IMG/VR virus record: IMGVR_UViG_3300005077_000936
Location: 28,727 to 92,726 of that record
Strand: one strand, 5' to 3'
Length of the DNA: 64,000 nt
DNA from: a virus
In this document: positions 24,772 to 28,864 of the stretch, one piece after another
Layout of the letters: every line of letters starts with the position of its first letter
Position numbering within the stretch: the first letter of the stretch is position 1
Position numbers and translations under genes: made by a program
The notes under the pieces: generated by a model
Databases searched by the model: none
What the model saw: the letters and a program-made list of their open reading frames with translations, nothing else
What the model was told of the DNA's origin: nothing

Positions 24772-25107
24772 ATGATAAATGTTACACAAGTAATGTCCAG
24801 ACATGGCCCTATAGGTGTAGTCAGGATAAAGTATGCAACTAATCCTCCTCTTGATCAATCTAAGTGTAATGATATTGCTATGCAAGTGATGGATTACTTA
24901 AGAAGTGCTTACATGTCAACAGGAATAACAAATAACCCTATCGTTGTCATTGTAGAACCTAATTTTCCTTTACCTATCTATAATGAAGGTATTGACCCAA
25001 CACCAGATTATGCTAAAGCTACTCAGGAAAAGATGCTTCAAGAAGAAATGAAAAAACAAGATTACTTTGCTAAACCTAAAGAAAAACCTAAAACCCTATT
25101 ACTATGA
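24772..25107 (+). CDS. hypothetical protein
   Basis: 111-aa ORF. Confidence 0.7.
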   Translation: MINVTQVMSRHGPIGVVRIKYATNPPLDQSKCNDIAMQVMDYLRSAYMSTGITNNPIVVIVEPNFPLPIYNEGIDPTPDYAKATQEKMLQEEMKKQDYFAKPKEKPKTLLL

Positions 25108-25385
25108 ACCTTTACCATTCATTACTCAAGCAAGGGAAAGCTGCTGTTGAAGCAATTCAGATTCCCTTTAAAGTCAAAGAAGAACAGAAGAAACTTGAAC
25201 TCAAGATTCTGACTATTGAACAACAAATTGCTTCAAGTACTCTTAAAGTTGAAGAGTGCAAATCTGCCTACCCTGTACAATGGGACAAGCTTCTTGATGC
25301 CATTGATGATATGGAGTTGCTTAAAAGAAAGCTCAAGCTTCTTCAAGAGCTTCAGTTTGAAATGTTTAAAGAAGACAAACAGTGA
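25104..25385 (+). CDS. coiled-coil hypothetical protein
   Basis: 93-aa ORF with heptad pattern, ATGA overlap. Confidence 0.75.
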   Translation: MNLYHSLLKQGKAAVEAIQIPFKVKEEQKKLELKILTIEQQIASSTLKVEECKSAYPVQWDKLLDAIDDMELLKRKLKLLQELQFEMFKEDKQ

Positions 25386-25756
25386 TAGAAAATTTTGAAG
25401 AGTTTACTTTTGATCTTACAAGACAGGAATTAGAAAATGTTCTTGTAATGGAAAGAATGCTTGTTAAATTTCTTCCTTATGGAGGTAGACATCCTGTTAA
25501 ACAGGATGTATTATGTTCTCTCATTAATTTGCAGCTGAAAAAAGAAGGAATTGACTTTAGCATTATACCAACCAGACTTAGAAAATATTTCAATTACTTT
25601 AGATGCAAAGGGAAAATACCTATTATAGCAACTGGAAGAGGGTGCTATTATGGCAATTCAGCAGAAGTAATTAGAAGTGAAATCAGAAGTCTTGAACAAA
25701 GAGCATCTCAAATTTTAAGAGCTGCTGATGGACTTAGAAGTTTAATTCCTGATTAA
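25382..25756 (+). CDS. hypothetical protein (winged-helix-like)
   Basis: GTG start overlapping the previous stop; IRKYFN.FR..G.IPIIA..RGCYY-type pattern. Confidence 0.7.
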   Translation: MIENFEEFTFDLTRQELENVLVMERMLVKFLPYGGRHPVKQDVLCSLINLQLKKEGIDFSIIPTRLRKYFNYFRCKGKIPIIATGRGCYYGNSAEVIRSEIRSLEQRASQILRAADGLRSLIPD

Positions 25757-25763
25757 AAAGACT

Positions 25764-25771
25764 TAAATTTG
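25764..25771 (+). promoter_or_regulatory. TAnnTTTG promoter element for the tRNA locus
   Basis: TAAATTTG ends 9 nt before the tRNA 5' fragment. Confidence 0.5.
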
Positions 25772-25780
25772 TAAGTTCTT

Positions 25781-25805
25781 GCCCTCTTAGCTCAACTGAA
25801 TAGAG
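25781..25805 (+). pseudogene. 5' half of a disrupted tRNA-Arg
   Basis: GCCCTCT-TA-GCTC-AACTGAATA-GAG (acceptor strand plus D-arm); its acceptor strand pairs with AGGGGGT at 26291-26297. Confidence 0.75.
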
Positions 25806-26156
25806 TTAGATAGTAGTATGTTCTATTCTATGACAATTGGCACATAATAAAACACACTTATCTAACTCTATTCTTATTTTCTCCCATGATTGAAGTCTTA
25901 ATTTATCCCATTGAAAATCTTTCTCATTGAAGTTAGTATGATGAAAGTCAAAAACAGAATAAGGAGTATTAGGGTAAGAGATTCCACAATTAATACATTT
26001 ACTACCTTTGTATTGGATTGCTTGTATTTTTCTCTTAATCCATCTTTCTGTACAATATTTGTTAAAGCATACCTTACAATAAGTTGCTTTTCTAATACTA
26101 CTTTGAAAGAACTCTGATTCCTCTTTTTCTTGTTTGCATTTAGAACAAATTCTCAT
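25806..26156 (-). CDS. HNH homing endonuclease with N-terminal zinc finger
   Basis: CSKCK...CKVC, CINCG, FDFHH, CVLLCANCHRIEH. The only - strand gene inside the + block; start refined to 26156. Confidence 0.9.
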   Translation of the reverse strand: MRICSKCKQEKEESEFFQSSIRKATYCKVCFNKYCTERWIKRKIQAIQYKGSKCINCGISYPNTPYSVFDFHHTNFNEKDFQWDKLRLQSWEKIRIELDKCVLLCANCHRIEHTTI

Positions 26157-26228
26157 GGTCTTATAGTTCAATGGATAGAACAAAGGTCTTCTAAACCTTA
26201 AATATGAGTTCGATTCTCATTAAGACTA
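26157..26228 (+). tRNA. trnR: tRNA-Arg(TCT), intact
   Basis: GGTCTTA/TAAGACT, GTTC/GAAC with A20, AAGGT-CTTCTAA-ACCTT, ATGAG-TTCGATT-CTCAT, discriminator A. Confidence 0.92.
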
Positions 26229-26238
26229 CAAAGATAAT

Positions 26239-26298
26239 AAATGAATAGATTAAATCCTTCTAAGGCAGGGGTTATTGGTTTGAATCCAATAGGGGGTA
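26239..26298 (+). pseudogene. 3' part of the disrupted tRNA-Arg(TCT)
   Basis: CTTCTAA loop (26257-63) with a decayed stem, ATTGG-TTTGAAT-CCAAT T-arm, AGGGGGT-A. Confidence 0.75.
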
Positions 26299-26299
26299 C

Positions 26300-27178
26300 A
26301 TGAAAAGAGTGACTAAATATCAAAGAAGGGAGAATGCAAAAGCATTTCTAAGAGGTATTTATTCACGATTTACAACTGAGTGGATTTCATATAAAGATAT
26401 AAAAGTCAGATACTTTGCTAAGAAAAATCATATTGAAGGAAGATTACAGAGAGTATTGATGGCAAATGAGTTTATTATTCAAAAACGCAAGTATAAAATT
26501 AAGCATCCTGATTTTCCAACTGATGAAGTTATAGATAGTTATCTTGAAATTGCAGCAAAGCAAAGATTGGAAGAAGCAAGGATATTATTCAATAAACTTA
26601 CACCTGAGCAGAAGAGTGAGAATTACAAAAGAAGATATGCCAGAGTTCAGGCTTTTAGAAAGAAGAAACAAGACTTTTATTCTCTCTTTGATCAGAAGGC
26701 TCTGGAAGAGATAGATAATAATTGCAGAGCATTGCTTCATAAATATTCTTGTAGCTATGACAAAGATGATCTTATACAAGACAGTTTATTATTAGCTTTG
26801 CAAAAAAAGGAAATGTTCTCTCCTACCTCTGCAAAATTTTCTACATGGGTAACTAAAATTGCACAGAATCTTGTTATGCAGAAAATACAAAAAGATAAAA
26901 GGATTGTTCCTGTTTTACCTCCTCCTGAAGAAGAAAGAGAACATGAGTTGACAGATAAGGAGAAATTAGCCCTAAGATACTATTCAGTACTTACCCCCTC
27001 TCAGAAACGCTTATTTGAGCTTGTAGGAGATGGTATGAGATATGCTGATATAGCAAAGAAACTTAATTACTCTTCAGCAGGGTATGTAAAATTTCTTGTA
27101 GGTAAACTTCGTAAAAGAATAAAAACCAAAATCAATGAAAGGATTAATATGGGTGGCACTATTGTTTTTAACAATTAA
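26300..27178 (+). CDS. sigma70/ECF-like factor with ~135-aa N-terminal extension
   Basis: Region 2 DDLIQDSLL...AKFSTWVTKIAQN; region 4 LTPSQKRLFELVGDGMRYADIAKKL. Confidence 0.75.
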   Translation: MKRVTKYQRRENAKAFLRGIYSRFTTEWISYKDIKVRYFAKKNHIEGRLQRVLMANEFIIQKRKYKIKHPDFPTDEVIDSYLEIAAKQRLEEARILFNKLTPEQKSENYKRRYARVQAFRKKKQDFYSLFDQKALEEIDNNCRALLHKYSCSYDKDDLIQDSLLLALQKKEMFSPTSAKFSTWVTKIAQNLVMQKIQKDKRIVPVLPPPEEEREHELTDKEKLALRYYSVLTPSQKRLFELVGDGMRYADIAKKLNYSSAGYVKFLVGKLRKRIKTKINERINMGGTIVFNN

Positions 27179-28212: not shown

Positions 28213-28864
28213 AGAAGGATTTGCTATTGTAGAAAGAGATACTCATATAGGAAAATGGGTTGAACAATATGGAAGACTTGATTTTGATCAGAATGCTCTT
28301 CCAAGATATCTTCCTTTTTTCAAACAAGGAGATGTACTTCTTAATATAGGTGCTAATATAGGAGCTTATGCTTATGCATTCAAAGATAAGGCTTCTGAAA
28401 TACATTGTTTTGAACCTAATCAGGAAGCCTTTGATTGTCTTGTTCACAATCTCGGAAAGATAAATAATACTTTCCTGTTTAACTATGCTGTTGGAGAAGA
28501 AGGAATTCCTTATGTTCTTAATACAGAGGATGATAATATAGGAGCTGCTTTTATTAAAGAGTCTCCTGAATCTTCTCTGAGAACTATAAGTATTGATTCC
28601 ATGTACTGGATAAAGGTTGACTTTATTCTTATGGATTGTGAAGGATCAGAACTTGCTGTACTTAAAGGTGCTGAAAAAACAATCAATAATTTCCATCCTA
28701 TTATGGTAATTGAAATCAATGATGGAGCACTACAAAGAAATAATGTAACAAGACAAGATGTCTTTAAATGGCTTGAAGATCATGATTACACATTCAGAAA
28801 CATTTATGAGACTGAAGGCTTTGAATACATACAAATGGATATAATCTGTTTCCCTAAATCTTAA
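28199..28864 (+). CDS. FkbM-family SAM-dependent methyltransferase
   Basis: NIGANIG, FEPN, DFILMDCEGSELAVLKGA. Confidence 0.9.
   Translation: MKITKEGFAIVERDTHIGKWVEQYGRLDFDQNALPRYLPFFKQGDVLLNIGANIGAYAYAFKDKASEIHCFEPNQEAFDCLVHNLGKINNTFLFNYAVGEEGIPYVLNTEDDNIGAAFIKESPESSLRTISIDSMYWIKVDFILMDCEGSELAVLKGAEKTINNFHPIMVIEINDGALQRNNVTRQDVFKWLEDHDYTFRNIYETEGFEYIQMDIICFPKS

Follow-up and report, generated by a model that had tools for sequence, protein, structure and literature searches.

A probable mobile cassette of HNH endonuclease and tRNA-Arg(UCU) genes within an interrupted phage tRNA-Arg gene

The window analysed here is a 64-kb stretch (64,000 nucleotides (nt); positions 28,727 to 92,726) of the 98.7-kb viral record IMGVR_UViG_3300005077_000936, and it contains a transfer RNA (tRNA) gene for arginine, tRNA-Arg(UCU), that is now in two pieces, comprising tRNA positions 1-26 and ~18/32-73, with a ruined anticodon stem. 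Between the two pieces lie an antisense, free-standing gene for an HNH endonuclease and an intact tRNA-Arg gene with the same anticodon. Comparisons with related loci favour the explanation—to which we assign a probability of roughly 0.7—that a mobile cassette, consisting of a homing-type HNH endonuclease gene, its own tRNA-Arg(UCU) gene, and a tRNA-derived spacer, sits inside a pre-existing phage tRNA-Arg(UCU) gene. The core of this explanation, namely a mobile unit interrupting a resident tRNA-Arg gene, had been put forward in an earlier reading made from the sequence alone (hereafter, the sequence-only reading), and is now supported by 37 pairs of HNH and tRNA-Arg genes, by their unrelated flanks, and by recurrent splits of the resident gene.

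The segments 25781-25806 and ~26243-26298 are parts of one former tRNA-Arg(UCU) gene, as that reading had claimed. With an nhmmer profile made from 111 tRNA-Arg(TCT) genes, 25781-25806 matched profile positions 1-26 (E 0.009) and 26243-26299 matched positions 18-75 (E 2.7e-6), and the acceptor strands GCCCTCT (25781-25787) and AGGGGGT (26291-26297) form 7/7 pairs, two of them G-U, across 503 nt. The 5′ fragment consists of the acceptor strand, TA, the D stem strand GCTC, the D loop AACTGAATA, and then GAGT; the 3′ fragment holds the anticodon loop CTTCTAA (26257-26263), the 3′ strand of the anticodon stem (GGCAG), the variable region GGGTT, an intact T arm (ATTGG/TTTGAAT/CCAAT, 26274-26290), the acceptor strand, and A73 at 26298. 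When joined, the fragments make 73 nt and are identical at 57/72 positions (79%) to an intact viral tRNA-Arg(TCT) family, which was found by pattern search in ten viral contigs (L087-L096) carrying the same 5′ acceptor strand and T stem; taken separately, the 5′ fragment matches this family at 22/26 positions and the 3′ fragment at 33/41. Furthermore, the T arm and acceptor strand of the 3′ fragment equal those of a tRNA-Arg(CCT) on contig L086, except for one T-loop base (TTT vs TTC). No match to the target-type tRNA pattern was obtained in a scan of bacterial and archaeal reference genomes, and the target tRNA is therefore assigned to a phage tRNA lineage. The G1-U72 pair atop the acceptor stem is common to the cassette tRNA, the split tRNA, and the intact family. 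Three other results were set aside or were silent: ARAGORN, run at a lowered threshold on 780 junction joins of the two halves, reported many different 'tRNAs' and was hence uninformative; an Rfam search of the 2-kb segment 25000-27000 did not report the tRNA fragments; and a candidate second acceptor strand, TCCTTCT, came from a truncated-mode Rfam mini-helix (12.8 bits, E 1.7) and was dropped, the profile aligning positions 18-75.

The signs of decay that had been listed for the split gene withstood scrutiny only in part. The real damage is limited to the anticodon stem, of which 2/5 pairs are left, and to the deletion of one base ahead of the anticodon loop. The changes from GG to GA in the D loop and from TTC to TTT in the T loop are not decay: the T-loop TTT accompanies the D loop TGAATA in 70 of 71 intact phage tRNA-Arg genes. 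Positions 19 and 56 of tRNA form a tertiary pair, so that GA together with TTT represents a compensated A19:U56 variant of G19:C56.

The same layout—that is, 5′ fragment, HNH gene, intact tRNA, and 3′ fragment—recurs in six further contigs (L097, L100, L241, L245, L258, and L264) and in coliphage Bas92, a cultured Escherichia coli phage (L309; PQ850610.1, with the HNH homologue at locus tag Bas92_0080) whose acceptor strands, GCGCTCT and AGGGCGC, match. Variants of the layout include L249 (5′ fragment, intact tRNA, HNH gene, 3′ fragment), L233 (5′ fragment, intact tRNA, HNH gene), and L261 (an HNH gene alone between tRNA fragments). Acceptor pairing is complete (7/7) in six of the seven split loci over 503-535 nt, each time with a different sequence, while L100 has 4/7 pairs; acceptor strands combined across loci give a mean of 4.8/7, with 7/7 in 2/42 combinations. 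No other evidence speaks as strongly for one interrupted gene per locus as this covariation across the insert. The D arm (TAGCTCAACTGAATAGAG) is the same in the window and L097, which differ at 5/7 acceptor positions, and L100 shares the window's T arm and not its acceptor stem. Such mosaics resemble the pattern that conversion tracts around a homing site would leave.

Several details of these and other loci were also noted. In L245, L258, L261, L264, and Bas92, the target's GCTCA (D stem/loop) contributes its TCA, read on the other strand, as the HNH stop codon, so that the final HNH codons run antisense to the dead tRNA fragment; the HNH open reading frame (ORF) of L109 and of L249 enters the 3′ end of the intact tRNA by ~30 nt. 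Two viral contigs, L139 (370 kb) and L188 (494 kb), carry the 5′ half of a tRNA-Arg, 13 nt, and an intact tRNA-Arg(TCT), with no endonuclease between them, and the half-tRNA could be the scar of a lost cassette. In L164, L176, L180, and L148, a tRNA-Arg is normal up to the anticodon stem/loop and is then interrupted by an insert; the long inserts in the first three could be group I-type introns, and that in L148 measures ~55 nt.

The presence of an antisense HNH gene and an intact, divergent tRNA between the fragments was confirmed by the ORF itself, by PHROG 2255, and by ARAGORN and Rfam. ARAGORN called one tRNA in the window, a tRNA-Arg(tct) at 26157-26229, which scored 72.5 bits against Rfam RF00005 (cut-off 29) and is identical to the joined fragments at 45/70 positions. 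This cassette tRNA has an unusual D stem, GTTC/GAAC, together with G1-U72 and A73, and is 77-82% identical to the tRNAs that adjoin the closest HNH homologues. The 116-residue protein matched PHROG 2255 'HNH endonuclease' (E 4.5e-28) and PHROG 3106 (E 4.5e-17), and its full-length homologues (115-126 residues) are 57-75% identical. Invariant in 14 homologues are H72, H73, N107, H109, and H113, as well as the cysteines C54, C57, C105, and C108; the motifs read FDFHH ... CANCHRIEH, corresponding to the catalytic His...Asn...His with flanking Cys pairs that are predicted to bind zinc. An AlphaFold2 (AF2) model had a predicted local distance difference test (pLDDT) score of 91.6, and its residues 39-116 could be aligned to Cap5, the Gme HNH nickase, the Cas9 HNH domain, and T4 EndoVII. 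No match below E 0.1 was returned by a Foldseek search of the PDB with the model, and a PDB sequence search gave a weak McrA match only; a GIY-YIG domain was not matched in Pfam or PHROGs. The gene is its own minus-strand ORF outside any intron or intein. A group I or other tRNA intron was rejected, as no intron family was matched in Rfam over 25000-27000 at E up to 10, the HNH gene is antisense, and the insert holds a whole tRNA. A transposon or insertion sequence was likewise rejected, the HNH gene being the only ORF in the insert and the second D-loop copy being cassette-borne, and an attP-like tRNA fragment of a temperate phage was ruled out by the presence of the 5′ fragment and by too low an identity.

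A search for the same unit elsewhere, which the sequence-only reading had suggested as a check, yielded 37 non-redundant loci. The closest HNH relatives (43-75% identity) adjoin tRNA-Arg(UCU), mostly on the opposite strand, amid unrelated flanking genes. In a large protein set, the closest homologues (62-75% identity) are encoded on contigs L097-L109, in all of which a tRNA-Arg(TCT) lies at most 57 nt from the HNH gene and on the opposite strand, the HNH gene being antisense to all its neighbours; the tRNA abuts the HNH start codon, lies 57 nt from the start, or abuts or overlaps the stop codon. A metagenome scan with the HNH alignment added 80 loci, and in ~31/46 of the closest metagenomic homologues a tRNA-Arg (UCU, in a few cases CCT) was found within 70 nt. 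The 37 pairs comprise 16 with the tRNA at the HNH start and antisense, 15 with it at the stop and antisense, and 6 with both genes on the same strand. Divergences of the HNH and tRNA sequences are correlated (Mantel r 0.25), a value reached by 0/2000 permutations. Flanking genes are unrelated among the window, L097, L100, L104, L106, L108, L109, and L098/L101, of which only L098 and L101 are related to each other, and the cultured carriers infect Escherichia, Salmonella, Shigella, Vibrio, and Limnohabitans. HNH and tRNA-Arg genes that stay paired amid unrelated flanks thus appear to travel together and to land among unrelated genes. More distant HNH homologues occur in other tRNA arrays or elsewhere; one of 216 residues, read with TAG as Gln, was seen in a tRNA array of Prevotella phage Lak-A1 (L004, MK250015.1 493026-493676), where it directly adjoins a tRNA-Asn on the same strand. 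The tRNA at L106:3123-3197, labelled Pyl(cta) by ARAGORN, was read by hand as a tRNA-Arg with the loop CTTCTAA and D and T loops of the A19:U56 type.

The tRNA-derived spacer lies between the cassette tRNA and the 3′ fragment. It opens with CAAAGATA (26229-26236), the reverse complement of TATCTTTG, which faces the HNH gene and matches TAnnTTTG, the Bacteroidota -7 promoter box. This motif precedes the HNH ATG by exactly 80 nt in five loci (the length of the tRNA plus 7 nt) and by 12-13 nt in three other loci of the same subclade, and it occurs anywhere within 130 nt in 9/37 loci, against a background of 7.7%. These positions suggest that the tRNA is placed between the HNH gene and its putative promoter; a scan for sigma-70 promoters and terminators produced nothing meaningful. 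After CAAAGATA comes a D-loop-like copy, AAATGAATAGA (26239-26249), which repeats AACTGAATAGA (25794) at 10/11 positions. The near-duplication of the D-loop segment at the two junctions, noticed earlier, is thus real, but the second copy is cassette-borne and not a duplication of the target. The right-hand D-loop copy, the spacer CAAAGATAA, and a TTCTAA remnant can be aligned in all cassettes of the subclade, and the second D-loop copy occurs even in cassettes that lack target fragments (L098 and L101) and in L104, L106, and L109, which are Form 1 loci, having an intact tRNA, the HNH gene, and the remnant only (L104-L109, L230-L240); it is therefore carried by the cassette rather than made by insertion, which rules out a fresh target-site duplication. 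This copy is hence the remnant of an old tRNA. We infer that the D-loop/TTCTAA remnant and the D arm beside the HNH stop codon provide the cassette with portable arms of homology.

Inverted copies of the D-arm motif were also found around the HNH gene. A near-palindrome (15-bp perfect arms, GAATAGAGTTAGATA and TATCTAACTCTATTC; self-match of 82% identity, E 4e-15) takes in the end of the 5′ tRNA fragment and extends across the HNH stop codon to cover the last 22 codons of the HNH gene. As RNA it folds with -24.5 kcal/mol (z -2.8), a U-rich run follows it on the + strand, and it may be a terminator or insulator hairpin; the counterparts of its arms in L097 are, as read, not complementary. A second hairpin, GGATAGAA-(A-rich loop)-TTCTATCC, is conserved at L106:2720-2763 and in L236, L249, L258, and L245, where it either directly precedes the HNH start or follows the cassette tRNA (upstream of the HNH gene in Form 1 loci). 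Its sequence apparently goes back to a tRNA-Arg remnant, of which it retains parts of the D loop and anticodon loop, and it may serve as a regulatory or binding site. Each of these two inverted copies of the D-arm motif may be a terminator, an operator, or a repair scar.

The cassette and target tRNAs differ in the D stem: the canonical GCTC is found in 5/36 cassette tRNAs vs 9/10 of the 5′ target fragments read, the tenth having GTTC. This contrast fits recognition of the D arm by the endonuclease and escape by recoding, and proves nothing; we infer no more from sequence than that the cassette tRNA may be the cleavage-resistant allele that had been proposed. Dependence of the phage on AGA codons is plausible. 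AGA (58%) and AGG (32%) together make up 90% of its Arg codons, and ARAGORN calls only three tRNAs in the genome; loss of a tRNA-Arg would plausibly be costly to the phage.

According to the favoured explanation, the HNH endonuclease would cut or nick the DNA of a canonical tRNA-Arg(UCU) gene, somewhere from the D arm to the anticodon loop, in HNH-less phages during co-infection, and the break would be repaired from the cassette-bearing genome, with short portable homology arms being provided by the D arm at the left end of the cassette and by the D-loop-to-anticodon-loop remnant at the right. This would leave the split gene with inner parts of cassette type and with an acceptor stem (in some loci together with the T arm) of recipient type. 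The cassette tRNA would maintain AGA/AGG decoding, and would probably escape cutting by virtue of a D stem unlike the canonical one, and the HNH gene, antisense to the phage operon, probably uses its own promoter in the spacer. More tentatively, and with somewhat less than even odds, the entire HNH clade may be a portable 'overwrite' element for one tRNA species, which recognises the DNA of the D arm and anticodon loop as the best-conserved portions of tRNA-Arg(UCU) genes, carries copies of both as homology arms, homes into otherwise unrelated phages, brings an immune, D-stem-recoded tRNA-Arg, and drives tRNA-Arg gene turnover among the phages of different bacterial phyla. Host defences targeting tRNA may also be evaded by the allele that the spare tRNA represents.

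Several observations weigh against this explanation. Pfam PF01844 scored only 13.9 bits, under its cut-off of 21.4, and the fold matches of the HNH model are modest (Z 3.6-5.8; root-mean-square deviation ~3 Å; 57-64 residues aligned). The 5/36 cassette tRNAs that retain the canonical D stem indicate that immunity through the D stem is not general. Close relatives of the flanking genes were not found in IMG/VR, INPHARED, or a set of 5.8 billion proteins, and no empty site was recovered for this genome; of the uninterrupted tRNA that was to be sought in related phages, only homologues in other phages (L087-L096) were recovered, and no close relative. Lastly, the cassettes come in two orders (tRNA-HNH and HNH-tRNA), and target fragments are lacking in L098, L101, and L104-L109; the family could therefore have originated from an HNH gene between tandem tRNA-Arg genes.

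Among the alternatives, one that is unlikely in its own right yet not mutually exclusive with homing is that the HNH endonuclease is mainly a domesticated helper, whose SegB-like breaks would promote recombination or amplification of the neighbouring tRNA gene, for example to counter host defences that cleave tRNA, the fragments being scars of rearrangement. The SegB unit of T6 is indeed amplified by way of microhomology that the tRNA shares with the end of segB (PMC13096335); in the window, the HNH and tRNA genes lie between the copies of an 11-nt direct repeat, and inverted repeats of the D-arm motif occur around the HNH gene. On the other hand, there is a single cassette copy in this genome, and the unrelated flanks in phages of very different hosts call for horizontal spread. 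Slightly less probable still is the decay of tandem genes, in which the site began with two or three whole tRNA-Arg genes, received an HNH gene between them, and then had redundant copies trimmed by deletions, with no gene being split at all. This rather improbable course would account for the Form 1 loci, which lack a 5′ fragment, and duplicated tRNAs are frequent in phage tRNA arrays. The fragments in the window cover complementary parts (1-26 and 18-75) with fully paired acceptors, though, and complementary fragments with different acceptor sequences are seen in six further loci, so that independent deletions must have taken out matching parts each time; moreover, the window shows no leftover from the 3′ part of a first copy or from the 5′ part of a second. 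It is very improbable that the split tRNA is still used, either by assembly of the pieces in trans or by removal of the insert at the RNA level: the complete acceptor pairing in six loci and the intact T arm speak for it, but the anticodon stem and loop junction are damaged as described, the L097 remnant is disrupted a second time by the intact tRNA and the L100 acceptor is incompletely paired, no intron family was matched in 25000-27000, the HNH gene is antisense, and recent insertions into different alleles account more simply for the retained pairing. A chance likeness of two intergenic stretches to tRNA parts can be dismissed almost entirely, as the weak E-value of the 5′ fragment by itself and the silence of Rfam on the fragments in the 2-kb search are outweighed by the E-value of the 3′ fragment, the G+C-rich, fully paired acceptors in a genome of 36% G+C, the exact tRNA-like spacing of the joined pieces, and the recurrence of the layout in at least seven other loci.

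The features of the locus are collected in Table 1. All neighbouring genes of the cassette are on the + strand, with the HNH gene antisense to them, its stop codon abutting the 5′ tRNA fragment and its ATG abutting the intact tRNA. The cassette is present as one copy, and its tRNA is the sole tRNA-Arg among the three tRNAs called by ARAGORN in the genome; the other two lie upstream of the window, one being a tRNA with anticodon tca (G000:C1:25983-26059), called 'SeC' by ARAGORN, which could be an opal suppressor, and the other a tRNA-Glu(ttc) (G000:C1:27461-27533). Two neighbour genes show ~31% identity to genes of Flavobacterium phages (tblastn, INPHARED), the only distant relatives of the window phage. 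The sigma-like gene had no tblastn match in INPHARED, a search of the 5.8-billion-protein set for relatives of the neighbour genes returned the query alone, and related-locus searches with the sigma-like gene and an exonuclease gene gave no match.

Table 1. Features of the interrupted tRNA-Arg locus and its immediate neighbours (window positions).
Feature	Position	Strand	Basis or remark
5′ fragment of interrupted tRNA-Arg (tRNA positions 1-26)	25781..25806	+	nhmmer, acceptor pairing, 22/26 identity to L087 family
Near-palindrome, 76 nt	25798..25873		inverted-repeat search, self-match, RNA fold
HNH endonuclease gene, free-standing, 116 aa	25806..26156	-	ORF, PHROG 2255, homologues
Intact cassette tRNA-Arg(UCU)	26157..26228	+	ARAGORN, Rfam RF00005, homologue tRNAs
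Cassette spacer, 28 nt	26229..26256	+	alignable with spacers of L097, L098, L100, L101, L109
3′ fragment of interrupted tRNA-Arg	26257..26298	+	nhmmer match from 26243, L087-family and L086 identity
124-aa ORF	25382-25756	+	directly upstream neighbour of the split tRNA locus
Sigma-factor-like ORF	26300-27178	+	downstream neighbour; ATG two bases past the tRNA fragment end at 26298

Phage tRNA clusters are known to harbour homing endonucleases. Destruction of the target together with supply of a complete substitute of the same anticodon would be a route to tolerance unlike splicing, inteins, or genes-in-pieces. If confirmed, it would explain tRNA fragments beside intact tRNA genes in phage genomes, the variety of D stems among phage tRNA-Arg genes, and the transfer of tRNA genes between unrelated phages through tRNA-internal homology alone. 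Annotation can be corrected as well, since such loci are labelled merely 'HNH endonuclease' and 'tRNA-Arg' in public records. Bas92, which has the same layout and can be grown in the laboratory, makes the idea testable at the bench. Full-text literature searches found no description of this layout, which is not proof of its absence.

Endonuclease-encoding group I introns occur in the anticodon loops of bacterial tRNA genes, and the cassette resembles them as a mobile endonuclease element aimed at a tRNA gene near the anticodon arm; unlike these introns, it shows no intron RNA in Rfam, its endonuclease gene is antisense, and the tRNA gene is replaced rather than restored by splicing. Certain other endonuclease ORFs, which encode HNH nicking enzymes, likewise sit inside a phage tRNA cluster, but neither a fixed pairing with one tRNA nor a split target has been described for such enzymes. 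In Aeromonas phage Aeh1, nrdA exists as genes-in-pieces through the insertion of mobE, an HNH endonuclease gene (PMC3045599), and 'fractured genes' provide a further precedent for split genes with functional pieces (PMC2677866). In these cases, too, a free-standing homing endonuclease gene lies inside its target and two pieces are left; those pieces remain functional via protein assembly or split inteins, whereas here the pieces are dead and the insert carries a complete gene. The closest parallel in mode of action is SegB of phages T4 and T6, whose free-standing gene lies in a tRNA cluster; the enzyme recognises a T-arm motif of tRNA genes and homes there (PMC2330249), and it drives amplification of a tRNA-segB unit through microhomology (PMC13096335). 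Like SegB, whose recognition site is a conserved tRNA-gene motif and which is widely associated with tRNAs, the cassette endonuclease is free-standing amid phage tRNA genes and would spread with the neighbouring tRNA gene. SegB is a GIY-YIG enzyme, encoded on the same strand between whole tRNA genes and recognising the T arm of many isotypes, whereas the cassette nuclease is an HNH protein, mostly antisense, whose family is tied to the single isotype Arg (UCU, in a few cases CCT); nor are there reports of SegB leaving its target split and providing a dedicated spare with the same anticodon. Overall, by analogy, the cassette would work in the manner of SegB while standing outside the SegB family.

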